From positions 7,219 through 71,218 of the forward strand of contig JAQTMH010000002.1 of NCBI GenBank assembly GCA_028714495.1: 64,000 bases of DNA, read 5' to 3'. How positions within the stretch are numbered: the first letter of the stretch is position 1; each line of letters begins with the position of its first letter. Positions 1,218 through 61,923 of the stretch are shown piece after piece. The DNA comes from Patescibacteria group bacterium (GTDB taxonomy: Bacteria; Patescibacteriota; Patescibacteriia; JAHIZJ01). The notes under the pieces are model-generated. The model had not been told where the DNA came from and searched no databases. It saw nothing but the letters and a program-made list of their open reading frames with translations. Both the position numbers and the translations under genes were made by a program.

Positions 1218-2189
1218 TTACTCGGTGAAGGGATTACTGATGATTCGATCGCGGACGATTCCGCTGAATACCTCGCGGAACAGTCCATTTGGATCAACCA
1301 CCAGCCGCGACAGATTACGTATGTCTGTGCCGCTCTGAACCTGGATCAGCTTGGAAGCGTCTCCGGTTGCCCAGACTGGCGTGGCCGGACTGGCAGTCAA
1401 CTCTCCGCCATTCTTGGTCATCACCAGACGCGCCTGGCGATTCACGCGCCGAAACACATTCGGATCATTCCGGTGGCTCCATATGCCCCCGGCTTCGCTC
1501 ATTCGCTCTAGGCGATAACGTGCAGACTTGAGCGGCGGTTTGACCGCGCTGAACCACGCGACTTCCCAGGGAACATCCGCTACTTGGGTATTCGGCGTGT
1601 AGATCATTCTTCCGGTCCGAGGACGATTCGGATCATAGGGCCGGATACCGTGTCCGCCTGCCTGGACGTGGAAGGTTGGCCGCTGGGTAGTCGGATCAAT
1701 CCAGAGAGGCCGCACATTGTAAGCCATCCGACTTCTGGTTTGGACCCTCGCTTCCTCACGCGCTCCGAAATACCACCAGGCATGGAATACTGATGCTCCG
1801 GCCACCACCTGATCCTTCTGAGAGTCATACACCACCATGATCCATTCCAGATCCTGGGGATGCGATCCCATGCTGAAGGGCAGGTAGTACTTCTGGTCAA
1901 TCGGGTGATACAGTTGATAGACTACATACCAGTACCGATTTCCCTGGATTACTTCATAGTAGATCCAGGCCGGCATTTGCGGGATTTTCAGGGCGACTGC
2001 TGGATTCTGCGCCACGTGACTCCAATCTCCTTGAAAATCAACGCGGGTTAGTGCGTCAACTCGCTGTACCTTCTGACTTGTCCCCCCTGTATCATGATAG
2101 ATCAGGGGCGAGCAGGTCCGGTACACGATGCTCCAAAGCGTCCTTTGCGTCAGTGCCATGGAACTCACCCCTTTCAGGTAAGGCGCCAA
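1218..2189 (-). CDS. Hypothetical protein, Trp/Tyr-rich, in a locally G+C-rich segment
   Basis: ORF track 323 aa with protein-like composition (YWYVVYQLYHPIDQKYYLPF, WWYFGAREE). No family recognised. Overlapping plus-strand ORFs are likely antisense artefacts of the G+C-rich DNA. Confidence 0.4.
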   Translation of the reverse strand: MAPYLKGVSSMALTQRTLWSIVYRTCSPLIYHDTGGTSQKVQRVDALTRVDFQGDWSHVAQNPAVALKIPQMPAWIYYEVIQGNRYWYVVYQLYHPIDQKYYLPFSMGSHPQDLEWIMVVYDSQKDQVVAGASVFHAWWYFGAREEARVQTRSRMAYNVRPLWIDPTTQRPTFHVQAGGHGIRPYDPNRPRTGRMIYTPNTQVADVPWEVAWFSAVKPPLKSARYRLERMSEAGGIWSHRNDPNVFRRVNRQARLVMTKNGGELTASPATPVWATGDASKLIQVQSGTDIRNLSRLVVDPNGLFREVFSGIVRDRIISNPFTE

Positions 2190-36162: not shown

Positions 36163-37431
36163 TTATTTTTTATTATAATACTTCCTCCCCTTCAACTCCT
36201 CCGGCAAATACTCCTGCTTGCCTTCTTCTGGTGTATAATCGTGCGAATACTTGTAATCCTGGCCATAGCCGATATCCTTCATCAAATCAGTCACGGCATT
36301 GCGCAGATGAAGCGGAACTGAGGTGTTTAAAGTTTTTTTCACGTCTGCCTTGGCTTCCATCAATGCCTTGTAGGAAGCATTTGATTTGGGGGCGAGCGCG
36401 AGATAAATAACGGCTTGAGCCAAATTAAGCTGGGCTTCTGGAAAACCTACGTATTCAACAGCGTGAGCGGCGGCATTGGCTACCAATAGTGCCATCGGAT
36501 CAGCATTGCCAATATCCTCGGAGGCGAGTATCACCATGCGCCGGGCGATAAACCGCGGGTCCTCCCCTGCCTCAATCATCCGGGCCAGCCAATAAATCGC
36601 GCCGTCCGGGTTTGAGCCACGCATCGACTTGATAAAAGCCGAGATGACATTGTAATGCTCTTCCCCTCCTTTATCATAGAGCAGGGATTTGTGCTGAAGC
36701 GCGTCTTCGATTGTCTGCTTCTGGATATGGCGAAACCCCTGCTTGTCAGACCGGGTGCTTTTAACGGCGATTTCGATCGCGTTCAGGGCGGTCCTGGCGT
36801 CGCCGTTTGAACCCTTGATTATCAAATCAAGCGCGGTTTTGCCGATTTTGACCTTGTATTTTCCCAAGCCGACTTTTTTATCTTGCAGGGCTTTTTTCAA
36901 AATCCGGCCGATATGCTCCGGATCCAGCCGCTTCAATACATAGACTCGGCTGCGCGACAATAAAGGCGAGATTACTTCAAATGAAGGATTTTCCGTGGTC
37001 GCGCCAATCAGCACAATCGTGCCATTTTCCACATACGGCAAAAAAGAATCCTGCTGGGCTTTGTTCCAGCGGTGGATTTCATCAACAAATAGAATCGTCC
37101 GCTGGCTCTGGTATTTTCTCAAATCCTGAGCCTCTTTTACCACCTTGCGTAATTCGGCAACCCCGGCGGCAACAGCGGAAATCTGGACGAATTTTGATTT
37201 TGTCAGCCGGGCGATTATTCTGGCCAGGGTGGTTTTCCCTGAACCTGGCGGCCCCCAGAGAATCATCGAAAAAAGCTCGTCGTTCTCAATCGCCTGGCGC
37301 AGTACTTTCCCCTGGCCTACAATCTCATCCTGCCCCAAAAAGCCCTCTAATTCTAGCGGCCTGATCCGGTCAGCCAGCGGCGCCTCGCGGGCCATTTCTT
37401 TCTCCATTTTTTGGTCAAATAAATCGGACAT
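36163..37431 (-). CDS. rarA: Replication-associated recombination protein A (AAA+ ATPase)
   Basis: Walker A ILWGPPGSGKTTLARIIA, Walker B LFVDEIHRWNKAQQD, and the MgsA C-terminal region. Confidence 0.85.
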   Translation of the reverse strand: MSDLFDQKMEKEMAREAPLADRIRPLELEGFLGQDEIVGQGKVLRQAIENDELFSMILWGPPGSGKTTLARIIARLTKSKFVQISAVAAGVAELRKVVKEAQDLRKYQSQRTILFVDEIHRWNKAQQDSFLPYVENGTIVLIGATTENPSFEVISPLLSRSRVYVLKRLDPEHIGRILKKALQDKKVGLGKYKVKIGKTALDLIIKGSNGDARTALNAIEIAVKSTRSDKQGFRHIQKQTIEDALQHKSLLYDKGGEEHYNVISAFIKSMRGSNPDGAIYWLARMIEAGEDPRFIARRMVILASEDIGNADPMALLVANAAAHAVEYVGFPEAQLNLAQAVIYLALAPKSNASYKALMEAKADVKKTLNTSVPLHLRNAVTDLMKDIGYGQDYKYSHDYTPEEGKQEYLPEELKGRKYYNKK

Positions 37432-37595
37432 ATAACAATAATAACATATACCTGTTTCGCGGGCGAATAAGACCTGTCCCGTCGTAGCATGGTATCTTGT
37501 CCACCTACGTAATTTGCTAATTCATTCAGACTGGTGACTTTCTGTAAATAAAAAAGTCCCACTTTTGGGACTTGCGCACATTTCCTCTGAAGGTG

Positions 37596-38066
37596 CTAGG
37601 CGTGTCTCTCGGCGAACCGACCACGGCCATATCCGGGAAACCGCCGGAAAACCCTTGGCTTGAATGGACAAACAACTGTCACCGATGGGAGCATCGAACA
37701 CGCACCGTCATGAATCACCGGATAGGTAGCACTGATCAGAACGTCATCACCAGGCGAATCGCCAAGTACAATCACCGCCGCCTCGTCAGCAATGGGCTGA
37801 CCGAGTTCCATCTTACGCCATCGCTCCGGATTCACGCCGGCGGGCGGTTCCGGAGTCGGATCCAGGATATCCGGCTCGCCGCTTCCCTCCCTGACCATCA
37901 CCGCCAAAACACTGCTCCGGTCCACATCCGCGATGCACACCATGCCAAGCAAACTCTTTACTTCAGGTAACCGCTCTAATCCCGTAGAAGCCACCACCGG
38001 TCCCTCCTTTGCCAATTTACGCAGCTCGACAGGCTGCAACATGGCGTTGGTATTATATATCACCAT
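37596..38066 (-). CDS. Hypothetical protein in a short G+C-rich segment (coding strand ambiguous)
   Basis: 156 aa minus ORF overlaps a 132 aa plus ORF. Local G+C is clearly above the flanks. No family recognised. Confidence 0.3.
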   Translation of the reverse strand: MVIYNTNAMLQPVELRKLAKEGPVVASTGLERLPEVKSLLGMVCIADVDRSSVLAVMVREGSGEPDILDPTPEPPAGVNPERWRKMELGQPIADEAAVIVLGDSPGDDVLISATYPVIHDGACSMLPSVTVVCPFKPRVFRRFPGYGRGRFAERHA

Positions 38067-38207
38067 TGAAAAGCGTCAAGTCGTTTTTAGTAAATTTAGC
38101 AAATATAATCATCATTACCATTTAACCGTAGCACCTTACTTCATGATTTTTAACTTTTAGTAATACAAAAAAACGGGCTAGACCGTTTTACCTTTGATTA
38201 TTCAATA

Positions 38208-38930
38208 TTACTTCCCGAAGCGCCTTTGCCTGGATTGAAAATCCTTAATCAGTTGATCGATATCGCTTTCATTAAAATCCGGCCAGTGCTTTTTAATAAA
38301 CGCGTATTCGGCGTATTCCAATTGCCAGGGCAGAAAACCCGAGGTACGCTGTTCACCAGATGTTCTGACAATCAAATCAGGATCAGGCAGCCCGGGAGTA
38401 TAGAGGTGGCTGTTAATTGTCTTTTTATTAATCCGATCGGGTGATACTTTTTCTTTGATTATCTTTTTCACCATATCAATGATTTCCGATCGACCGCCGT
38501 AATTTAGGCAAAGATGGACAATGCCTCGGGTATTATTCTTAGTTCTGGCAACCGCCCGTTTTATATAGTATTGAAGTTTACTGGGAAATTCATCAGTCCG
38601 TCCCGAAACCAGGAGTTTAATGTTCTCCTTATCAAACTTCTCTAAGCGGTTTTTAAAAACATCCTCGAACAATTTGAACAGATAATTCACCTCACGTTTA
38701 GCGCGTTTCCAATTCTCGGTTGAAAAAGCCCAGAAGGTCAGAACCTTTACTCCCCGATCAAGCGCGGCATAGCAAGTCTTTTCCATTACATCAACACCCC
38801 GCTTGTGTCCAAAAAAAGCAGGTAGATGTTTTGCTTTCGCCCACCGCCGATTGCCGTCCGGGATTATGGCTATATGAAGAGGGATCGCTGGTGTTTCCAT
38901 GGTTAAATAAAAATTAACGGTTTCGCGCAA
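38208..38930 (-). CDS. uppS: Undecaprenyl diphosphate synthase (cis-prenyltransferase)
   Basis: HIAIIPDGNRRWAK and the C-terminal RFGK typical of UppS. Confidence 0.85.
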   Translation of the reverse strand: MRETVNFYLTMETPAIPLHIAIIPDGNRRWAKAKHLPAFFGHKRGVDVMEKTCYAALDRGVKVLTFWAFSTENWKRAKREVNYLFKLFEDVFKNRLEKFDKENIKLLVSGRTDEFPSKLQYYIKRAVARTKNNTRGIVHLCLNYGGRSEIIDMVKKIIKEKVSPDRINKKTINSHLYTPGLPDPDLIVRTSGEQRTSGFLPWQLEYAEYAFIKKHWPDFNESDIDQLIKDFQSRQRRFGK

Positions 38931-39993
38931 CCAAATAATCTGTCAATATCATTAACATCCTAGCACTTTTCGCCGATATTTGTCTAGCCCCCTTTAGCGA
39001 CTTTTTGGCTAAAGATACGTATTTTCGCGCTAATTTCCGCGATTTTTCAAGTGAACCAGATTTAATCATCAACTGGCGTATCCGGCTGATATCTCGCTGG
39101 TTTAAATTCGTTTTTCCGTAATGATTTTTCAGCCATAATCTGTCTTGGCGATTTGAACCGCTCAGCGCTTCAAAATACAAAAGTGTTTGCTTGCCTTCTT
39201 TGATATCAGAATCGACCGGTTTGCCCAGTTCCTTTTTACTGCCGAATACCCCCAGAATATCGTCGCGAATTTGAAAAGCCAGGCCAGCTGGAATGGCGAA
39301 TCGACTTAGCCGTCGTATTTGATCTTTCTTAGCACCGGCTAAAATCGCTCCCATAACCAACGGCGCTTCGAATGAGTATCGGGCCGTCTTTAGTTTATAA
39401 ACTCGCAAGATACCTTTTTTCGAAACTAACACCCGTGCTTCGTTATTAATATCCAGAAGCTGACCATAGTTTGTCTCCAGCAAGATCTGCCCCAAATAGT
39501 TAATAACCTTCATTCTTCGTGCTGGCGGAAACTTCGCCCGCGCGACCAAGTTGTTAGCCAGGTAATTTCCGACTACCCCGATTAAAATCGCGGTTGATAA
39601 ACCGAAATGCCTTGAATCGCCTAGAGCCAGATTTTTTCGGTGGTATTTTTCAAAATATTTGTGGACGGTGATTCCCTGCCGGCGCCAATCGTCACGGTCA
39701 ATAACATCATCGTGAATTAAAAGATAGCTGTGGATTATTTCAACAGCCGCTGAAATATCTATTATCCCTATCGGCGCTTTCTTACCAACGGCTTCATACC
39801 CGATTTTCACCAAACTGGCCCTGATTCTTTTGCTGGATCCGCGCAGCGTGAATTCAGCCAACCGGCTTATCGTTTGGACTAAGAACGGCGAAATGCCGGC
39901 TGTCTTATTTTTTTCAGTTTTAAAAAAAGTTTTGAGCCTTCGCTCAACCTGACTTTTGTACGATGAAATTTCGCGTTCAAACTCGTTTATCAT
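38914..39993 (-). CDS. trans-Polyprenyl diphosphate synthase (FPP/GGPP/long-chain type)
   Basis: First DDxxD LLIHDDVIDRDD and second FQIRDDILG aspartate-rich motifs. I place the start at the internal Met at 39993. Confidence 0.8.
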   Translation of the reverse strand: MINEFEREISSYKSQVERRLKTFFKTEKNKTAGISPFLVQTISRLAEFTLRGSSKRIRASLVKIGYEAVGKKAPIGIIDISAAVEIIHSYLLIHDDVIDRDDWRRQGITVHKYFEKYHRKNLALGDSRHFGLSTAILIGVVGNYLANNLVARAKFPPARRMKVINYLGQILLETNYGQLLDINNEARVLVSKKGILRVYKLKTARYSFEAPLVMGAILAGAKKDQIRRLSRFAIPAGLAFQIRDDILGVFGSKKELGKPVDSDIKEGKQTLLYFEALSGSNRQDRLWLKNHYGKTNLNQRDISRIRQLMIKSGSLEKSRKLARKYVSLAKKSLKGARQISAKSARMLMILTDYLVARNR

Positions 39994-40834
39994 TGTACTT
40001 GAGCAATAGCTCAGCCTCACGCTCCAGCTGGCCGAACTGATTGCGTTCTGATTTCGTAAACTTATCCCAGTCTTTGAACGAAACAACGTCTTCAACTGTC
40101 ACTACATTAAGTCCAAAAAGTTTCCGTTTCAAATGCGCACTAAGAGTTAACAATACCGTAATCGGATAAAGTTTGGTTTTGGCGATTAACTGTTCCAAGC
40201 CCCCGCCCTCAGGGTGTCCCCAGCTGATGATCTTTATCCCGGCGCAGGCCGCGTATTTTTCAGCTTCGGTGGTGTGCTTAGTGTTGGTAACCAGCCAAGC
40301 CTGATGCATTTTTTCGGTCGGAGCCAGACGCCTGGGATCAGTTTTTTCCTTAAGCGCCTCGGCAATATCATCGAAACGTGCCTTAACATACAGCACGGTT
40401 TTTACATTTGTCCGATTGCCCTTAAACTGGTGAAATTTACATTCGAATAAATGAGTCAGATTATCCTTGTGCGCCAAGATGTCTACTTCATGAGAGACGC
40501 AATACCCGCGTACAAAAACATTGGTTTGAACCTCGTAGCCCAGTTTTTTCAGAATTCTGGCAACATATTGCTCAAACGGATAACCCGTAGGTCCGAACTC
40601 GAATAAGGCTTTTTTCAGGCTGTAGCGCATGGCCGATCCCTTATCCTCCCGGGAAAGCTCCCGGTGGGCATAGTCAAAAAGGTGTTCAGTCGATTTGAGC
40701 TTGGCCTCTAATTTCTCCGCCTGTTTGCTCAAATTCCAGACGAATTTTTCGCTCGCTCCAGATTTCAAAAGTGACCGGTGGAACTTATCTCGGTCAAAAG
40801 GCTGATATTCGCCGGTGGATTTTTTCAGCTGCAT
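39977..40834 (-). CDS. ATP-cone domain fused to Mrr-cat-like (PD-(D/E)xK) restriction-endonuclease domain
   Basis: N-terminal IKKSTGEYQPFDRDKFHRSLLKSGA resembles an ATP-cone. The central GYPFEQYVARILKKLGYEVQTNVFVRG...HEVDILAHKDNLTHLFECKFH resembles the Mrr catalytic core (E...D..EcK). Confidence 0.55.
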   Translation of the reverse strand: MQLKKSTGEYQPFDRDKFHRSLLKSGASEKFVWNLSKQAEKLEAKLKSTEHLFDYAHRELSREDKGSAMRYSLKKALFEFGPTGYPFEQYVARILKKLGYEVQTNVFVRGYCVSHEVDILAHKDNLTHLFECKFHQFKGNRTNVKTVLYVKARFDDIAEALKEKTDPRRLAPTEKMHQAWLVTNTKHTTEAEKYAACAGIKIISWGHPEGGGLEQLIAKTKLYPITVLLTLSAHLKRKLFGLNVVTVEDVVSFKDWDKFTKSERNQFGQLEREAELLLKYNDKRV

Positions 40835-41138
40835 ATTTTAAGCATACGCCTTCTATTGTCAAAAAACAAGGGTAAATTTTTCAGTCTCGACGAATCAATT
40901 GTTCTGCTCTTGTCTTCGACAGTAAGCCAAACTCCCCAAACCTCCATGCTCCATTCTTATTCTTTCGACCGAACTTTAGTTCGGGTTGAGAAAGCTTCAG
41001 CTTGAATGAAGATTCCTCGCCTTTGGCTCCGCTTACATATTTGGTGAAATCATCGTATTGCAACTCTACAATTGTTGTCGTGAAGGCAAAGAAAAAGACG
41101 GTTCTTTTTCAGAACCGTCGTGCGACGCGTCATGCCTG

Positions 41139-41660
41139 CTATCCAGGCAACTGAGTCGGGACTCTTTCAGCCTCGAAACCTTGGAGTCGCAAACGACTAA
41201 ACATCACCCGCAGGAAATCATGCGCCCAAATCAGCAGATTACGGGCTTCACTACGCTGGGCTCGTTTCCCCTCATGGACAGAATCCTTGATGGTCTTTCC
41301 GTCCCGCATATGACCGAGATGCGCTGAGGGTAATCTATCAGCCGGGACAACCGAGTCAATGAACCAGTGTCTCAACCCGACTTCCAGGGACCACAAGTTA
41401 GTGTTCCGAAACCCGCGCAAGCCCAAAGCGACTTTGGCGCAATGCAGCATGGAGAAATAGGCCTGCTCAACCGTGTCATCGAAGTCGCCCGAGAGAAAAC
41501 TCCGGCGAGCCCGAGCCAGCTCGCTGAGAGCAGTCTCCAGTTCTCCTGCCGCGGCTTGAGGGTTTGATTCGATCTTGACCAATTTGCGCCCTGCTACCGC
41601 ACCGTCAAACTGACTCATAGCACTCACCTCCTGGTTTGGCGAACTTGAACCGCTGCCCAT
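41139..41660 (-). CDS. HEPN-like hypothetical protein (G+C-rich segment)
   Basis: 173 aa. All-helical with AYFSMLHCAKVALGL and R....H-like positions suggestive of HEPN. Weak. Confidence 0.35.
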   Translation of the reverse strand: MGSGSSSPNQEVSAMSQFDGAVAGRKLVKIESNPQAAAGELETALSELARARRSFLSGDFDDTVEQAYFSMLHCAKVALGLRGFRNTNLWSLEVGLRHWFIDSVVPADRLPSAHLGHMRDGKTIKDSVHEGKRAQRSEARNLLIWAHDFLRVMFSRLRLQGFEAERVPTQLPG

Positions 41661-41950
41661 TCCCTATCACCAGCACAGAAGTGCTGCTTCCCTGTACACT
41701 CCAATCTATATGAAAAGAGCTTGATTTTCACCGGACAGACAAAATTAGCACGGCTAATTGGCTGATGTCAAGAGCTGAGATTATAGCGGTTCTTGAATTG
41801 GTAATAAGCCATCCAACGCACAGCTCAAACGGAATTAGCTTCTTCTTAAATGCTTGACTTAGAATGAAATATGTAATATGCTTGCAGCCGGTACTTCACT
41901 TGTGTTCGTTACAGGTTATTTGACCAAATAACGCCAAAGGGGGTGGGCTC

Positions 41951-42397
41951 ATGAAAGCGTGGTTGCCGGTTCTGGCCCTTCTGTCTCTGGCTCTGGTTTC
42001 ATCCGTGTCAGCCCAGGAGATCATCATGCCTGATTCCAGTCAAATCGTCCAATGCGTCGTCCACCTGAAACAGGTCGTGACACTCGGTGATCTCTCCTTC
42101 GGTCTTGACGGCAACCAACCCGGGCTTCTCTATGTCAAATACCGCGGACGCTGGCAGCCGGATCCGACCTTCGCTTTTGACGGCATCTCAATCAATGCCC
42201 TGGCCGTCGATCCAAAGACCCAGGAGCTACTTCTGGCTGGCTGTTACTACGATGAAGGAATCCCAGTCTGGATTCGAGTGAGTTATGAAATGATACCAAC
42301 CGGTCAATTCATTGCCGAGGTCCAAACAAGCCCGGAAATGCTTCCGGACTTTGAGCAGTTGCGCGATCCAATCATTGAACCCTGCTATCAGCGCTGA
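41951..42397 (+). CDS. Secreted hypothetical protein (signal peptide), G+C-rich
   Basis: MKAWLPVLALLSLALVSSVSAQ signal peptide. 148 aa. No family recognised. Confidence 0.45.
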   Translation: MKAWLPVLALLSLALVSSVSAQEIIMPDSSQIVQCVVHLKQVVTLGDLSFGLDGNQPGLLYVKYRGRWQPDPTFAFDGISINALAVDPKTQELLLAGCYYDEGIPVWIRVSYEMIPTGQFIAEVQTSPEMLPDFEQLRDPIIEPCYQR

Positions 42398-42447
42398 GCC
42401 TTGTCCTTTTCCGACCCGACCAGAGGATGAAAACCCTGGTCGTTTTT

Positions 42448-43329
42448 TTATATTAATCTTTCGCAAGCCCGCCCATTCGTGTCGGCATCAATTAGGTGAA
42501 CGTCCCTGCCGGTTTTTGCCCGGCAACAGTCGTAAAGGCTTTGAGCCTCGGCCTGTGTTTTAAAATCGCGACAGTCGTAATAATTTTCATCACAAAAGCA
42601 TTCCGGCGCATCCTCGAGTATTTCAGTACTGGACGAATCGGATTGGTATTCAGCCGTTTCAGCCCTTTCCGGCGTAGTCCTTTCCCAGAGATTTAAACTT
42701 TTCGAATCGCAAGCGCCCCACAATCCCCGGCTGGCTTTTCTTGATTCATCTTCCAGATCGAGAAATTCCTCCTCATGAGCCACATCCGGAGGTACTGGGA
42801 AAGCCCTGGCATAGCCCAGGGCTACCAGCTCGCGGTTCACAAAAGTCTCCCCGATATAAACATACCGCAAAAGCCTGCCATAACGGTCTTTGTCGCGAAC
42901 ATCTTTGACGAGCCGAACCTGTTTGCCTTCAACCAGCTCGCGATTTTTTTCAGTTGCCACTTGAGCAAAACAGTCTGGTGGTTTATGATTGGTTTCCGGC
43001 GTATCAATGCCAATATAACGAACCTTATCGCCAGTTTCAATTTCGATAGTGTCGCCGTCAATTATCTTGCTAACTTTTACAACATCACCTGGGACGGGTA
43101 TTTCAGTTTGAGCAACCGATTCAATACTTGTCTCTACGTCTATCTGATTGGAATCATCCTGAATATCATTTTGGCGATCAATCTGAAACCAAGAAATAAA
43201 TAATCCAAAGACAATAACTATTACCAATTCCCTTTTAGACGCTCGCGCAAAAATATTTTTAATAAAAGATATGATTTTTGACATATATTTATTGTCTGTC
43301 ATCATATCATAAACAAATAGGAAGACCAA
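42448..43329 (-). CDS. Membrane-anchored extracellular thermonuclease (SNase-like) with C-terminal Excalibur Ca-binding domain
   Basis: TM anchor. SNase core VSKIIDGDTIEI...VRYIGIDTPE...RLLRYVY. C-terminal CDENYYDCRDF and DADTNGRACE Excalibur motif. Confidence 0.75.
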   Translation of the reverse strand: MVFLFVYDMMTDNKYMSKIISFIKNIFARASKRELVIVIVFGLFISWFQIDRQNDIQDDSNQIDVETSIESVAQTEIPVPGDVVKVSKIIDGDTIEIETGDKVRYIGIDTPETNHKPPDCFAQVATEKNRELVEGKQVRLVKDVRDKDRYGRLLRYVYIGETFVNRELVALGYARAFPVPPDVAHEEEFLDLEDESRKASRGLWGACDSKSLNLWERTTPERAETAEYQSDSSSTEILEDAPECFCDENYYDCRDFKTQAEAQSLYDCCRAKTGRDVHLIDADTNGRACERLI

Positions 43330-44899: not shown

Positions 44900-45973
44900 C
44901 TAGGTTTGTGCTATTTGGGAAGCCCGATCCGATTTGGCTCCTGTTCCGCTTTCATTTCGGCCGTTCAAGCCAAGCTCTTGTCTGATCCGGCTGGCCAGTT
45001 CGCCAAGCCGACCATCCATCGCTTCAGGAGTCACAATAAGTCTCTGCCAATCTGCTCCGTTACGATAGGTCACGATTACGCCAAGCTGGCCAGTTTCGAC
45101 TTCAGTCGGCTGCGAGGCGTCATTAAGTCCGTCATGTTCAGCCGCTCTCACAGAACTCACTCCCGGGATTTCACTGATCAAACGGGCGATCTCACGACAA
45201 CCGGTGATGAACCGGTCATCGCAAACGCGTCCTGCCTTGCCATCTCCCCTGGTCAGCGCCAATGCCTGGCTTCGACGAATCATGCTGTTCAGATCGAAAT
45301 GCCGCCGACTTAGAATCTCGGTTCTCAGGGCAGCTGGATTCATCGCGATCGTCGTCACGACTCGAATCGCTCTTTTGATGCTTCTTCCGTGGAACGTGAC
45401 CAAAAGTTCATAGCCGCGAATTTCGACTTCCTTACTGACTTCGCTGGCAATCCGGTCCCTGACTATAACCTCGCCCGGAATCACCTGGGCCACGCCGCGC
45501 CAACGACTTAGCTGTCCGCAGAAGATATCGCAGGCGATGGTTTCCTTGTCAACCAGTCTAACCAGACCCCGATTGGGCAATTTGTCATAACTGGCACCCA
45601 GACCAAAACCGCCTTCGAGAGCGATCCCACTTTCAGTCATGACCTGGCTGTATATGCCCTGAATGTCAATCCGCGAGCCAACCATCCGAATCAATTCCCA
45701 CATCAGCACTGAGCTGGTTACTCCGCTGATCGGTATGACATTAAACCGGCGGATTGTCTCGATCCCAATCATGGTTCCCTTAACCGAATACCCATCCTCC
45801 AGAAAACAGACGTTTGGGACTCTCAACTCCCCTTTTCTGGGTTTAACGGACTCAAGGAGTTCGACCGCCTGGACATGGGGCAACCCACTCAGAAATTCTA
45901 ACAGTTTCTCAACTGCCCTTTCGTCGATCATGGCGCCTTTAGGCTCCATTTCGTTCGTGGAAGCAGCGTCCAC
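44900..45973 (-). CDS. Hypothetical protein, G+C-rich segment
   Basis: 357 aa with protein-like composition. Overlapping plus-strand ORFs are probable antisense artefacts. Confidence 0.4.
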   Translation of the reverse strand: MDAASTNEMEPKGAMIDERAVEKLLEFLSGLPHVQAVELLESVKPRKGELRVPNVCFLEDGYSVKGTMIGIETIRRFNVIPISGVTSSVLMWELIRMVGSRIDIQGIYSQVMTESGIALEGGFGLGASYDKLPNRGLVRLVDKETIACDIFCGQLSRWRGVAQVIPGEVIVRDRIASEVSKEVEIRGYELLVTFHGRSIKRAIRVVTTIAMNPAALRTEILSRRHFDLNSMIRRSQALALTRGDGKAGRVCDDRFITGCREIARLISEIPGVSSVRAAEHDGLNDASQPTEVETGQLGVIVTYRNGADWQRLIVTPEAMDGRLGELASRIRQELGLNGRNESGTGAKSDRASQIAQT

Positions 45974-48670: not shown

Positions 48671-49249
48671 AGTCCTATAGCATATCAAATTTATACTTAT
48701 TGTTCAAACCAAGGTACCAAAAAAGAGGAACAACGGAGTGTTTCTTTCCTACCGTGGCGGTTCAACCGAAGCGGTTTTTTTCTACCCGGCTTAGCCGATT
48801 TTTTACTTCCGACTTCTACTCGGCTTTAGCCGAGGGTCTCAAAGGCTTTAGCCCTGATAGTCTATCATAATCTATCCAACCCTTACTATCCTCACCAGTA
48901 TCAATAACTGAATATACCAATTTCCGTGCGTATTCTTCACCAAATTTATCTTCAATCTGTCGATAACTAGAAAATGGATTTTCTCTCAATTCCTGAAAGG
49001 TATTTACCTCTTTTCACCACACTACCTTCTAACTGACTTTAGTCAGGTTGGTAATTTAGTAGCGATAACCCCGCCCCCATCCTAACATAGGCCGCAGATG
49101 ATAGACGCTAAACCGCTAGGCGGCTTCGCCTTATGACCATTATATACCAAGGCTGTGGTTGGGATGGAGACGGGGTTATTTGCGGTGACTTCGACGTCGG
49201 CCTGACTATGGTTATTTACTTTTACCCATTATTTTTGCTAGTTCTATGC

Positions 49250-50654: not shown

Positions 50655-51833
50655 TTAGGACGCCATCGGCCATTCATCAGCGTCTGTCTGATCAGCCGGA
50701 TTATCCGTCTGACCAAATTCATTCGCTGACTGACCAAAGAGCATTTCACCGGCGATTTCCTTCAAGGTGGCCAGGACGCGATCATGGCCAATCCCTGATT
50801 CCTGGGTTCTTGTGTAATCAACCGCCCTGATTACCACCTCGAAATCACCAACCGAATTCCACTCCTTTAGGTGACAGGCAAGGCGATCCAGTTCAGCCGG
50901 ATCAGCCAGAGCGCTTTCAACCAGTATCTGATCCAGTACGCGCCAATCACCTACAACCGCTACCAGTTTGTCCGCCTGTCTCTCCCAGAAGCGGCGGCGA
51001 GCCTCCTGGACCATATGGTAGGCAATCCAGAAAAGCGTCGTGTACACCGGGTCGGGATCCCTGCGCCTGAGCCAGTCAAACATTATCTGCGTGATCTCAT
51101 GGGCCTTGACTAGGCGCTTGAGTGGAGGCTTTTTGCCCCAGCCACGCAGGATTTCGACCAAGCGGTGATGATCCTGCGGATCACCCGGCAAATCGCACGC
51201 GTAGGCGATGTCTGAAAGCACCCTCCAACCGCCCACATCAACCGCGATGTTATGCAGGCAGTCTCCCGGACTGACCGCGGCTGAAGCCAATTGATTCTGG
51301 AGGCGGCTTGTGAACAACGGCTGAGTAGTTTCAGCAGGGTTATGCCCCTTCCCGCCTAAATCAGGAAGTTCAGTCTGTCTGTCAGGTTCAGCGGTTTGGT
51401 CAATCGACGACCCTTTCAGCTCATGAGTTGGGCCTGACCGTTCCAGATTGCCCTGATTGTGACCGATGGCGCGGAACAACGCGGCATTCACAATCAGCCG
51501 GAACAGCGCTGGATTTACTGACCGAGGAATGAAACCGTCGGCTCCGCACTGTCTCGCTGCTTTACGGCACATCGCGTGGTTCTGACCGGCCGGGATATTA
51601 GCCATCAGATAAATCGGGGGCCGCAAAATCAGCCTAAGCTTCTTGCTTTCCTGGACCAGGCGCAGACCAGGCGATTCATCAGATTCGGCTAAGACTAGAT
51701 CGGGCTGAAAGCAAGAGATCATAGTCAGGGCTGAGGCCAAATCGGACGCGCCGCAGACCTCAACCCCAGCCAGCAGATCGGAGTAACTAGCCAAACGACC
51801 CAGATTGATGTCAAATACCAGGATTCGTTCCAT
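50655..51833 (-). CDS. Response-regulator receiver (REC-like) domain protein with large uncharacterised C-terminal domain
   Basis: N-terminal RILVFDIN...PDLVLAES...PIYLMANIP...GADGFIPRSV follows the CheY-like (beta-alpha)5 pattern. The phospho-acceptor position is atypical. G+C-rich. Confidence 0.45.
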   Translation of the reverse strand: MERILVFDINLGRLASYSDLLAGVEVCGASDLASALTMISCFQPDLVLAESDESPGLRLVQESKKLRLILRPPIYLMANIPAGQNHAMCRKAARQCGADGFIPRSVNPALFRLIVNAALFRAIGHNQGNLERSGPTHELKGSSIDQTAEPDRQTELPDLGGKGHNPAETTQPLFTSRLQNQLASAAVSPGDCLHNIAVDVGGWRVLSDIAYACDLPGDPQDHHRLVEILRGWGKKPPLKRLVKAHEITQIMFDWLRRRDPDPVYTTLFWIAYHMVQEARRRFWERQADKLVAVVGDWRVLDQILVESALADPAELDRLACHLKEWNSVGDFEVVIRAVDYTRTQESGIGHDRVLATLKEIAGEMLFGQSANEFGQTDNPADQTDADEWPMAS

Positions 51834-52118
51834 GACCCAACCTCCTCTTTGTGACTCATAATAAAAAGAGCCTCATTAGAGGAGGCGTCATTTCTAGGGA
51901 CTAATCCTTATTGTCCCTGAGCTTTGTAACTATAACCTTGATGCCGGTTACGCTACTGGCTCCCGATGAACTGTACCCCTTAGCTAAAGCTATGGGGTAA
52001 AGCGTCCAAATTCAGTTCATCGTTCGACGCCTCATCATTACTACCCTAGTGTTTCCAGGATAGTAAAAAAACATTAGCATATTGTTTTCAGAATGTCAAG
52101 CCCCTGCGGATACTGCCC

Positions 52119-52534: not shown

Positions 52535-52576
52535 CCATAGAACCAATAAAAGTGATGAGTAGAAGATAATCCTTTG

Positions 52577-52612
52577 GTAACTACATTATCGAAGCCTAGG
52601 GCAAAGACCCGC
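52577..52612. repeat. Direct repeat copy 1 (about 36 nt, GGTAACTACATTATCGAAGCCTAGGGCAAAGACC)
   Basis: Near-identical copy at 52745-52780 (GGTTATTACATTATCGGAGCCATAGGCAAAGAAC). Each is followed by a local hairpin. Confidence 0.5.
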
Positions 52613-52744
52613 CGAAGGCCGCTTTGAATAACCTATTTGATGGTGAAAAGAAATTACTGCTTAGTGAAGTAAGTGTAAATAACTGGTGACCGGAGGCGGG
52701 TAAACAATTTGCTACGCCAAAAGGTAAATAAATGCCATAATTTG

Positions 52745-52780
52745 GTTATTACATTATCGGAGCCATAGGCAAAGAACACC
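52745..52780. repeat. Direct repeat copy 2
   Basis: See copy 1. Spacing about 168 nt in a non-coding G+C-rich stretch. Confidence 0.5.
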
Positions 52781-52965
52781 CGTACCACTTCGGGTACGGG
52801 GCAGGCTGCCGAGCCCCGGCCTTAAGTGCCGAGGGGAGGCGGGTATGGTTAATTAATCACCCCCCGGTTGATATTGGAGATGCCGGATCAGGTCCGGCAT
52901 GACTACTGTGTGGTATCTTCAAGCCAAAGCAAATTCCGCCCAAGGTTCAAGCACTTAATAAAAAA

Positions 52966-60747: not shown

Positions 60748-61923
60748 ATGCAAAGGACTAGCATGCAAGGAGTGGAGCGGGTGTACTGTGATGTCTGCAT
60801 CCACGCCCTAGTTGCGGCCTGGCGTGAACTGCTGGATTCACCAGCTAGCGAAACGCTCAGACATACCAAATACGGCAAGGGTGATACGCTGGGTCTGGAC
60901 GCAATCACCGAAATCATTATTCACGACCGGCTGTGTGACTTTGACCGCCATGCCATTCTGGTCACCGAGGAATTGGATGATGATGCCCGCGAGCGCTGGC
61001 CAACTGACGCTGAACCGATCCGGCAGCCGCTCATGTTCTTCTCTGACCCGACTGACCGATCCAGACAACTCAGAGAATACATCGAGACAATCAGCAGGGA
61101 AACGCCCATCAGAAGGCTCGGACTGCTCATGGGCCGGGACAAGGGCATCCAGGTCTGGGAAAGAATGTTCGAGAAACCGGCAATGATCACTGGAGCTACT
61201 TCTTCCATCACCTGCGTGCGCAAAGGCCAGATCATCTTCTCGGTCATTCTCAACATCGTCACCCAGACCATTTTCGTGGCGACTCCACTGGGCAATGTCG
61301 TGATGCGCCTGCCCCGGTTCGGTGATCCAGTCTGCGATCAAGTCGACCTGAACTATGTTCTGGGGCATGGCCGGCCACTGATTTTCCCGCCAGCTAAGAT
61401 CACCTGCCAACGGCCAGATGACTTCAAGCGTTTTGTTACCTTCCTCGGTAAAGAAGACTATGAGAAGAACTTTATTGACAGTATGGTCTTCGTTGAGAAT
61501 CCCGATGACTTTCTGCACCACACCCTACCTGGCGGACCGGCAAGAATCCTCTATCTCTCCGAGCTCCAGCGTGGCCATGGACCGATTGGCTTTATCATGG
61601 CCAATGGCGAAAAGATCGGCGAATGGATCCACTGGCTGGCCTTTGCCAAATTCGCCATGCGCGAGCACGGCGGCCACCAGCTCAGGATTTTCGAGATCGC
61701 CATTCCCCGACCCCATTACAAAGACGGCGTCCTGATGTCCACGGCTCCGGCTTACAGCATTTTCAGCCAGCTTGGTTCGACTGTCTATCTGGATGTCAGC
61801 CGGTTGCGGACCTTTGAGACACCGAGCCGCTTCCGCTCCATGCTCGTGGTAGCGCCGTTTGACAACGAACGGATCGCCCACATCATGCGGCAGCACTGCT
61901 ACCGCGAAATCGACCTGTCTTAG
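60748..61923 (+). CDS. Hypothetical protein, G+C-rich segment
   Basis: 391 aa. Strong RBS AAAGGAGGGGG 5 nt upstream of ATG. Minus-strand ORFs 60838..61521 and 60921..61295 are probable antisense artefacts. Confidence 0.5.
   Translation: MQRTSMQGVERVYCDVCIHALVAAWRELLDSPASETLRHTKYGKGDTLGLDAITEIIIHDRLCDFDRHAILVTEELDDDARERWPTDAEPIRQPLMFFSDPTDRSRQLREYIETISRETPIRRLGLLMGRDKGIQVWERMFEKPAMITGATSSITCVRKGQIIFSVILNIVTQTIFVATPLGNVVMRLPRFGDPVCDQVDLNYVLGHGRPLIFPPAKITCQRPDDFKRFVTFLGKEDYEKNFIDSMVFVENPDDFLHHTLPGGPARILYLSELQRGHGPIGFIMANGEKIGEWIHWLAFAKFAMREHGGHQLRIFEIAIPRPHYKDGVLMSTAPAYSIFSQLGSTVYLDVSRLRTFETPSRFRSMLVVAPFDNERIAHIMRQHCYREIDLS

Follow-up and report, generated by a model that had tools for sequence, protein, structure and literature searches.

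An ATP-Cone–Nuclease Fusion Protein and a Neighbouring G+C-Rich Insertion in a Patescibacteria Genome

Gene Organization of the Locus

The window, meaning the whole 64,000-nucleotide stretch of Patescibacteria DNA that was analysed, carries a gene for a 285-aa nuclease-like protein, the gene of a polyprenyl synthase and a G+C-rich block of two genes, one for a HEPN-like protein and one, divergently transcribed, for a secreted 148-aa protein (orf148) (table 1). Both the nuclease gene and its overlap with the polyprenyl synthase gene, as described in an earlier note on this DNA, were found. The ATG of the synthase (39993-39991) lies inside the 3' end of the nuclease gene, whose stop codon is at 39977-39979, giving an overlap of 17 nt, and the identical overlap is annotated in L001, an independent metagenome-assembled genome. 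A longer synthase of 393 aa starting at TTG 40095 was rejected in favour of ATG 39993 on homologue alignments, annotation and the Shine-Dalgarno sequence. For the HEPN gene, the start was placed at ATG 41618 (M15 of the listed 173-aa ORF), which has AGGAGG just before it and at which all relatives start; the 173-aa version from ATG 41660 was rejected on the same three kinds of evidence.

The candidate promoter TTGACA-16-TAAAAT abuts the nuclease ATG directly, and a -10-like hexamer is found 0-7 nt 5' of this ATG, likewise in L001 and in the related loci L002, L003 and L006. No Shine-Dalgarno sequence is present before the nuclease ATG. Because the promoter-like site ends at the ATG and a Shine-Dalgarno sequence is absent, the nuclease mRNA may be leaderless. 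A putative intrinsic terminator 3' of the HEPN gene would separate the HEPN transcript from the nuclease gene. We also considered whether an RNA gene might be hidden between the coding regions or within the 758-nt insert, and rejected this, since Rfam gave no match at E <= 1 in window positions 37300-42500 or in L001 5380-5920.

Table 1. Coordinates of genes, domains and predicted signals at the locus
Feature	Position	Strand	Evidence
Polyprenyl synthase gene	38914..39993	-	Pfam polyprenyl_synt, E 3.5e-51
Gene for 285-aa protein (ATP-cone, AF1548-type PD-(D/E)xK nuclease, C-terminal domain)	39977..40834	-	ORF list, 1Y88 match, AF2
AF1548-like C-terminal helix-hairpin-helix-like domain and long terminal helix, residues 208-285	39980..40213	-	
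PD-(D/E)xK (Mrr_cat) nuclease core, residues 84-205	40220..40585	-	Catalytic residues invariant
ATP-cone domain (beta-hairpin and helices), residues 1-80	40595..40834	-	
Promoter-like site TTGACA-16-TAAAAT	40835..40862	-	Consensus scan, 11/12 matches
Intrinsic-terminator-like hairpin (9 bp, then TTTTTCTTTG), 3' of HEPN gene	41097..41119	-	
Gene for 159-aa solo HEPN (PF05168/UPF0332-type) protein	41139..41618	-	Relatives, profile, fold
Hyperdivergent patch within HEPN gene	41311..41507	-	12-34% nucleotide differences from L001
Gene for 148-aa protein (orf148), predicted signal peptide and three Cys	41951..42397	+	ORF list, hydropathy
Predicted signal peptide of orf148, residues 1-21	41951-42013	+	n/h/c pattern, VSA/QE

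Domain Architecture of the 285-aa Protein

The N-terminus had been read as an ATP-cone, and the relatives and the fold bear this out, though the protein's own Pfam score is below the cut-off (PF03477, 17.4 bits against 25.8; E 0.0064, residues 2-63). PF03477 was matched by 48 of 66 aligned relatives at E <= 1e-3 (best 2.6e-9), positions 3-73 of the family profile align to NrdR residues 49-127, and the beta-hairpin-capped helical fold superposes on solved ATP-cones. Across the 66 family sequences K5, G8, F13 and K17 are invariant, forming a conserved N-terminal Lys...Phe...Lys signature whose spacing equals that of NrdR (VVK..(7)..F...K).

The Mrr-type PD-(D/E)xK core was likewise confirmed: Mrr_cat (PF04471) scored 32 bits against a gathering score of 21 over residues 84-203, and all 66 relatives matched it. 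The catalytic D/E/K residues are conserved. E88, D118 and E131-x-K133 are invariant in 66/66 relatives (35-63% identity), as are further polar residues around them, and this set aligns with D38/E51/K53 of AF1548 from Archaeoglobus fulgidus (PMC1821046). NCBI contains an identical protein under the name 'restriction endonuclease'. The 285-aa protein matched the AF1548 structure (PDB 1Y88) at E 3.3e-29, and its AF2 model reached a pLDDT of 94.1. Homology to AF1548, itself an endonuclease by prediction only, spans both the nuclease core (PF04471) and the C-terminal domain (PF22357). The solved AF1548 chain differs in having only about 21 residues before its nuclease core, and therefore it has no ATP-cone.

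The third domain (AF1548-like_C) and the terminal helix were overlooked in the earlier note. This helix-hairpin-helix-like part with its terminal helix probably serves in DNA or nucleic-acid binding or in dimerisation. No Mrr_N, SRA, winged-helix or modified-base reader match was found in the 285-aa protein or its relatives.

Distribution and Genomic Context of the Nuclease Family

The family comprises over 2,360 proteins from at least 599 species genomes (a lower bound) and was found in Patescibacteria, Bacteroidota, Nitrospirota, Dependentiae and Hadesarchaea. Its distribution is patchy across phyla, with identity of about 40% within phyla and between phyla alike, and 30 residues are invariant across phyla in the alignment of 66 relatives. 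The dN/dS of the nuclease (0.06) is close to that of its housekeeping neighbours YkuD (0.06) and RarA (0.03). As judged from its domains, there is nothing unusual about the 285-aa protein within its large conserved family, which joins a predicted ATP/dATP-sensing domain to a predicted DNA-cutting enzyme; our literature search found no paper on an ATP-cone and nuclease fusion. No family copy was found in the IMG/VR viral contigs; on this ground, and because ORF156 has no phage match, a phage origin was rejected.

The nuclease (REase) lies in a syntenic block together with YkuD, SNase, polyprenyl synthase, UppS and RarA, and this gene order extends no further than the six closest loci. The idea that the nuclease is functionally coupled to polyprenyl synthase or UppS was rejected, as this linkage is confined to the 6 closest loci of 84. 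In 68 diverse loci the first and second neighbours were heterogeneous housekeeping genes with no conserved partner, and neither a methyltransferase nor RNR/nrdR was among the 25 most frequent neighbour families listed. Only about 7 of the 136 immediate neighbours at these loci had PADLOC matches at E <= 1e-8, and CRISPR-related matches amounted to two Csx16-like and one Cas4-like. In PADLOC-DB 2.0 no full-length defence model matched the 285-aa protein itself. The partial matches were to CARF_PDDEXK (30.5 bits, nuclease part), to the candidate PDC-S02 (25.4 bits, residues 13-126, including part of the ATP-cone) and, at domain level, to ZorD.

The comparison with defence catalogues thus went against the proposal that the nuclease came in by lateral transfer as part of a defence or restriction module, as did its place in a syntenic housekeeping block and its low dN/dS. 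Neither the database label 'restriction endonuclease' nor the 'defence island' reading is supported. Context and evolutionary rate instead point to a putative role in cellular DNA/RNA metabolism or nucleotide economy, not in mobile restriction or defence.

The G+C-Rich Block

The sharp rise in G+C reported next to the nuclease is real in both genes of the block (HEPN gene 55.2%, orf148 53.5%; window mean 46.0%, sd 5.2% in 500-nt windows; 97th percentile), but it does not set the block apart. The G+C content of six further genes in the window is likewise high, at 52.9-56.9%, a level of 54% is reached by about 10% of all 300-nt windows, and the intergenic stretch between the two genes is at 44.6%. 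Base composition is mixed throughout this part of the genome. Since the same gene order recurs in L001, an independent assembly with 96-97% DNA identity, the block is not an assembly chimera, which had been raised as a possibility.

The block is missing at this spot in L003, L005 and L006, and L002 has two unrelated small membrane ORFs in its place; a HEPN-MNT pair at this spot in L002 was rejected, as both ORFs look like membrane proteins. On these comparisons the block is an insertion specific to this lineage and separate from the nuclease, at an intergenic spot whose content varies; no functional link between the two is evident. Of the suggested laterally acquired defence or toxin module, the accessory insertion therefore stands and the toxin or defence role does not.

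The assignment of the 159-aa protein as HEPN-like held through its relatives, profile and fold. It gave no direct Pfam or NCBIfam match at E <= 0.1. Exhaustive HMMER searching found 59 relatives, for which the JGI label is 'UPF0332 family', and 34 of 44 relatives matched PF05168 (best 7.1e-23). The family profile matched AF0298 (PDB 2HSB), a UPF0332/PF05168 HEPN protein, at E 1.4e-13. The top Foldseek matches of the AF2 model (pLDDT 96.8) were all HEPN structures (2HSB, 1UFB, 1O3U and 3O10; TM 0.70-0.79 normalised to target, 0.79 for 2HSB).

UPF0332/PF05168 proteins commonly supply the HEPN component of HEPN-MNT modules. In contrast, no MNT gene was found adjacent to the HEPN gene, elsewhere in the window, in L001 or at the loci of its relatives P0125, P0128 and P0140, the context of which looks chromosomal. 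The Rx4-6H residues of HEPN nucleases were also checked, and no conserved motif appeared in the family columns. At the canonical site the protein reads K111-D-S-V-H115 (41274-41288), or K-D-S-V-H-E where UPF0332 has R-E-x-A-D-Y; its own family has K/R-D/E-x-A/V-Y/D-Y. The candidate R109x4H114 reads Q..H in a 79% homologue, and R126x6H133 is unconserved (H in 5/44). Lacking both a conserved Rx4-6H and an MNT partner, the protein is not supported as a toxin.

The non-synonymous rate of the HEPN gene is 10-30 times that of its neighbours. Its hyperdivergent patch (dS 0.72, protein alignment columns 51-105) is flanked by sequence that mostly differs from L001 by 0-6%. A diversity-generating retroelement target was rejected, because the substitutions are not restricted to adenines and the window contains no template repeat; recombination with a divergent allele would fit the pattern better.

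The signal peptide described for orf148 was recognized by its hydropathy pattern, with a basic n-region, a hydrophobic h-region and an A-x-A-type cleavage site (N-terminus MK-AWLPVLALLSLALVSSV-SA/QE; hydropathy 2.2-2.6 over residues 5-19), and the pattern is kept in two homologues. No Pfam or NCBIfam match and no family were detected. The database search returned orf148 itself and one relative (P0124, 73%); a further copy lies in L001 (93%), against which dN/dS is 0.21.

Proposed Function and Alternative Explanations

ATP-cones of NrdR and RNRs work via nucleotide-dependent oligomerisation (PMC9110341, PMC11226230, PMC5794259). By analogy, a nucleotide-regulated nuclease is most likely the best mechanistic reading of the 285-aa protein. 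The N-terminal ATP-cone would sense adenine nucleotides (ATP, dATP or others), and the bound nucleotide would shift the oligomeric state or domain packing, as in RNRs and NrdR. Such a shift could toggle the nuclease, with its apparently intact E-D-ExK metal-dependent active site of the AF1548 type, on or off, so that nucleic-acid cleavage would be tied to the (deoxy)adenylate pool. The known ATP-cones (PF03477) of NrdR and RNRs have a Zn-ribbon DNA binder or a reductase as output, whereas here the output is a nuclease, and RNR or nrdR genes are absent from its most frequent neighbour families.

Taking structure, context and conservation together, we favour a stand-alone, chromosomally stable nuclease gated by adenine nucleotides, with a cellular role and with the G+C-rich block separate from it (probability about 0.6). 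Counting against this explanation are the ATP-cone score of the protein itself, which is under the gathering cut-off, and the nuclease core, which is closest to defence effector nucleases (Can2, Card1, MspJI, AspBHI and ZorD). The patchy distribution and the similar identity within and between phyla would also suit an accessory or defence gene that has spread horizontally. A single-gene anti-phage or abortive-infection nuclease might be imagined, by analogy with CARF- and SAVED-linked PD-(D/E)xK effectors that answer cyclic oligonucleotides; its ATP-cone would sense the disturbance of ATP/dATP during infection and unleash the nuclease. The sensor-plus-nuclease layout, the spread among phyla and the domain-level PADLOC matches agree with this idea, but these matches are partial, at about 25-30 bits, and no full-length model was matched. 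The family also differs from Can2, Card1 and VC1899, the CARF-PD-(D/E)xK proteins ancillary to type III CRISPR, in having an ATP-cone in place of CARF, an extra helix-hairpin-helix-like C-terminal domain and no consistent CRISPR or cyclase context. Housekeeping neighbours rather than defence islands, a stable position under strong purifying selection and 30 residues invariant across phyla, which is unusual in arms-race genes, make this alternative unlikely. The database name would suggest a type IV (Mrr-like) modification-dependent restriction endonuclease. Such enzymes need no methyltransferase, Mrr_cat is above threshold, and the catalytic domain is structurally similar to those of MspJI and AspBHI. 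Unlike Mrr, MspJI and AspBHI, the 285-aa protein has an ATP-cone at its N-terminus and no Mrr-type DNA-recognition domain, SRA-like or other reader of modified DNA, and its gene is conserved with core-like constraint in a syntenic place outside defence islands; we regard this origin of its function as very improbable.

The nuclease fold might instead serve for DNA binding only, making the protein an NrdR-like nucleotide-sensing regulator and not an enzyme. The repressor NrdR uses an ATP-cone as its sensor (PMC9110341), the 285-aa protein has a predicted helix-hairpin-helix-like DNA-binding domain, and inactive DNA-binding PD-(D/E)xK domains exist, one of which, NA-iREase1, was weakly matched by 2/66 relatives. 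The invariance of the full catalytic set and of nearby polar residues in the relatives argues for retained catalysis, and we hold the regulator to be most improbable. As for the G+C-rich block, the HEPN and orf148 genes could together be a toxin, immunity or defence module gained by lateral transfer. RNase toxins are common among HEPN proteins, the pair is inserted at a variable spot with a G+C content above that of the flanking genes, and the HEPN gene combines fast non-synonymous change with a recombination patch. But a conserved Rx4-6H is lacking, no MNT or other partner occurs here or at the three relatives' chromosomal-looking loci, the PADLOC match of the HEPN protein is marginal (E 5.8e-4) and orf148 has no detectable family, so such a module seems doubtful at best.

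For the window, the value of these results is mostly corrective, and they advise against annotating the neighbouring HEPN gene as a toxin. Experimental work on the ATP-cone has been confined to RNRs and NrdR, where it is the master switch of dNTP synthesis. Thousands of proteins with an ATP-cone before an intact nuclease site suggest a link between (deoxy)adenylate level and DNA/RNA cleavage. With somewhat less than even confidence, we propose that they form, alongside RNRs and NrdR, a third functional class of ATP-cone proteins, in which the pool of ATP/dATP or another adenylate would switch the activity or the oligomeric state of a nuclease. If true, nucleotide status and nucleic-acid cleavage would be directly linked in reduced-genome bacteria and in many Bacteroidota and Nitrospirota, possibly for nucleotide salvage, for control of replication or repair, or for infection sensing. 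Homologues occur in the cultured genera Chitinophaga, Arenibacter and Gelatiniphilus, and in these cultivable hosts the idea is directly testable.

Domain Architecture of the 285-aa Protein

The two domains that an earlier note had assigned to the 285-aa protein from the sequence, an ATP-cone and an Mrr-type nuclease core, proved real, and a third, an AF1548-like C-terminal domain, was found beyond them. When the protein was compared with Pfam alone, Mrr_cat was matched at residues 84-203 (32 bits, cut-off 21), the ATP-cone at residues 2-63 was below threshold (17.4 bits, cut-off 25.8), and the AF1548-like_C match was faint. The family comprises more than 2,360 homologues, nearly all of 272-311 aa. 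In a sample of 66 aligned homologues (35-63% identity to the query), Mrr_cat was matched by all 66, the ATP-cone by 48 (best E 2.6e-9), and AF1548-like_C by 44. The ATP-cone residues K5, G8, F13, and K17 were invariant in this alignment, and the family signature K-x7-F-x3-K also aligned to the ATP-cone of NrdR. The same was true of the catalytic D/E/K residues, the PD-(D/E)xK set E88, D118, E131, and K133 being invariant; their counterparts in AF1548 are the predicted catalytic residues D38/E51/K53 (PMC1821046). Judged from sequence, the predicted metal-dependent nuclease site is intact, and an ATP-cone with its nucleotide-binding signature is present.

The sole solved homologue, AF1548 (PDB 1Y88), was matched with E values of 3.3e-29 (single sequence) and 2.9e-53 (family profile), over the nuclease, the C-terminal domain, and the terminal helix, with the ATP-cone outside the match. 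Structural comparison gave scores of 22.7 for 1Y88, 9.6 and 9.3 for two NrdR structures, 7.4-8.6 for ATP-cone-bearing RNR chains, 10.4 for Can2 (23% identity), 10.0 for VC1899, 8.8 for Card1, 10.1-12.0 for AspBHI, FokI, and MspJI, 7.7 for a RAD51 paralogue, and 6.1 for Pol X; Foldseek was consistent with this overall picture. The last two matches suggest a helix-hairpin-helix-like fold for the C-terminal domain. Three cysteines (C112, C132, and C197) and two histidines (H115 and H135) were invariant or nearly so across the family; the cysteines are also kept in AF1548, and all five are separate from the catalytic residues. They may constitute a structural metal site.

An NCBI MAG protein labelled "restriction endonuclease", encoded on a contig of 258,610 bp, has exactly the sequence of the 285-aa product. 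The nuclease gene overlaps that of the polyprenyl synthase, as the note had stated: the synthase ATG (39993) lies inside the last 17 nt of the nuclease gene, the UppS gene follows, and the overlap is annotated alike in L001, the closest related locus, from an independent MAG. The mechanical ORF list gives a longer polyprenyl ORF with a TTG start, which was rejected as wrong. Because no Shine-Dalgarno sequence precedes the nuclease gene (window 40835-40862, compared with L001 and the further close loci L002, L003, and L006), and a -10-like hexamer lies 0-7 nt ahead of its ATG in all five of these lineages, a leaderless mRNA is suggested.

Coordinates of features in the window
Feature	Position	Strand	Remark
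Nuclease gene (285-aa ORF)	39977-40834	-	Patescibacteria (CPR) contig
Terminator hairpin	41097-41119		Good; between HEPN and nuclease genes
HEPN gene	41139-41618	-	159 aa
Divergent patch, mid HEPN gene	41311-41507	-	12-34% vs L001; most flanking sequence 0-6%
orf148	41951-42397	+	148 aa
156-aa ORF in 758-nt stretch	37596-38066	-	G+C 57%
Site resembling L001 element	49113-49229	-	Intergenic
Site resembling L001 element	52550-52680	+	Intergenic
Site resembling L001 element	52715-52845	+	Intergenic
c-di-GMP-II riboswitch	51933-52043	-	Rfam 58.9 bits, above gathering score
343-aa ORF	44900-45931	-	G+C 53-56%
Gene	1218-2189		G+C 53-56%
392-aa gene	50655-51833	-	G+C 53-56%
Gene	60748-61923		G+C 53-56%

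Genomic Context and Role of the Nuclease

The evidence says that the nuclease is not a defence or restriction gene, or at least is an untypical one, and the earlier proposal that it belongs to a laterally acquired defence/restriction module is opposed by conserved synteny, evolutionary rate, neighbours, and PADLOC results. The gene order YkuD, SNase, nuclease, polyprenyl synthase, UppS, RarA is kept in L001, L002, L003/L005, and L006. Against L001 (96-97% DNA identity), dN/dS was 0.06 for the nuclease, 0.06 for YkuD, and 0.03 for RarA. The polyprenyl synthase, UppS, and SNase neighbours are limited to the six closest loci; at 68 diverse loci, the immediate neighbours were heterogeneous housekeeping genes, among them MnmA (6), beta-CASP RNase (6), MgtC (5), and LOG (4), and the second neighbours fell into 162 Pfam families, each occurring at most four times. 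Neither DNA methyltransferase nor RNR was among the most frequent neighbour families listed. PADLOC matches (E <= 1e-8) were found in about 7 of 136 immediate neighbours, and the nuclease itself matched CARF_PDDEXK, ZorD, and the candidate PDC-S02 over part of its length, at 25-30 bits. No viral copies of the family were found in 2.9 million viral contigs (IMG/VR). Counted from one peptide pattern, which gives a lower bound, the family is present in at least 599 species-level genomes of Patescibacteria, Bacteroidota (cultured members including Chitinophaga, Arenibacter, and Gelatiniphilus), Nitrospirota, Dependentiae, and one Hadesarchaeon.

PD-(D/E)xK nucleases often require dimerisation. In NrdR and RNR, occupancy of the ATP-cone by ATP or dATP changes the oligomeric state (PMC9110341, PMC11226230, PMC5794259). 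On these two grounds, we infer as the most economical model that nucleotide occupancy of the ATP-cone would gate the assembly or exposure of the nuclease. CARF-nuclease effectors have a parallel layout, and among characterised proteins their nuclease cores are the nearest relatives; their sensor, however, is a different one, and the 285-aa protein has no signalling partner. Its biological role may be in nucleotide salvage, DNA metabolism, or immunity; context and evolutionary rate favour a cellular role. The sequence features given in the note are borne out, as is, at the level of domains, its reading of a nucleotide sensor joined to a nuclease. The 285-aa protein is an unexceptional representative of a family that is known but uncharacterised; a literature search found no paper on the fusion of ATP-cone and nuclease. 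As a target for experiments the protein is moderately interesting, since it may stand for a third functional class of ATP-cone proteins.

In two sets of family loci, L023/L024 and L040/L041/L042/L047, the match and neighbour-ORF coordinates are the same although the loci are assigned to different organisms (Terrimonas ferruginea and an "uncultured Citrobacter" MAG, for instance), a sign that contigs in the public genome collection may have been mis-binned or duplicated.

The G+C-Rich Block

The sharp rise in G+C beyond the nuclease gene is real (HEPN gene 55.2%, orf148 53.5%, window 46.0%; 97th percentile) but not unique, since six other genes in the window are equally G+C-rich. The HEPN gene and orf148 are both absent at the corresponding position in L003, L005, and L006, and two unrelated small membrane ORFs take their place in L002; therefore, the block is accessory and was inserted at a variable spot. 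Assembly chimerism, which the note had considered, was rejected because the independent MAG of L001 carries the same block. For this block, the idea of a defence or toxin module gained by lateral transfer is unproven. The signal peptide attributed to orf148 has a clear pattern; a database search returned orf148 itself and one relative, and a further copy is encoded in L001.

The HEPN gene starts at M15 (ATG 41618, with AGGAGG ahead), giving 159 rather than 173 aa; NCBI annotates the same start, and all relatives align from it. The protein had no direct Pfam match, and a search of 5.8 billion clusters gave just a single close homologue; an exhaustive profile search recovered 59 relatives. "HEPN-like" was nevertheless the correct description, because 34 of 44 aligned relatives were assigned to PF05168, the family profile matched AF0298 (PDB 2HSB; E 1.4e-13), and the top structural matches of the model (pLDDT 96.8) were all HEPN domains. 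The term "toxin" is unsupported: the Rx4-6H candidates are not conserved, R109x4H114 reading Q..H in a 79% homologue and R126x6H133 varying among relatives, the canonical site is K-D-S-V-H here versus K/R-D/E-x-A/V-Y/D-Y in the family, and neither this locus nor those of three relatives have a neighbouring MNT gene.

The HEPN gene is fast-evolving (dN 0.12, dN/dS 0.52). In its divergent patch, synonymous sites likewise differ more than elsewhere (dS 0.72). The substitutions are mixed and not adenine-specific, so retroelement mutagenesis was rejected, and the patch looks like recombination with an unseen divergent allele; the window holds no HEPN paralogue.

Other Insertions and Compositional Patches

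Between UppS and RarA/MgsA, the window has a 758-nt stretch (37450-38207) where L001, 96-97% identical, has only 59 nt. This is a second strain-specific insertion; it has no terminal repeats, and comparison of its 156-aa ORF with Pfam, NCBIfam, phage, and Rfam entries gave no match. Conversely, L001 has about 200 extra nt between the HEPN and nuclease genes (L001 5474-5732) that are absent from the window (41009-41067). Over roughly its first 120 nt, this extra segment is similar to three intergenic sites of the window, and they have the core ATCGAAGCC..GGCAAAGAACCCC in common. Each copy is found 300-450 nt upstream of a gene (ABC ATPase, HU-like protein, and, in L001, the nuclease); the segment had no Rfam match and is possibly a small intergenic element, either mobile or regulatory.

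A c-di-GMP-II riboswitch lies upstream of the 392-aa gene on this Patescibacteria contig. The 343-aa ORF has no Pfam match and is conserved in the closest relative only. Several genes of 53-56% G+C stand in this 46% contig, and thus compositional patchiness is widespread in this genome.
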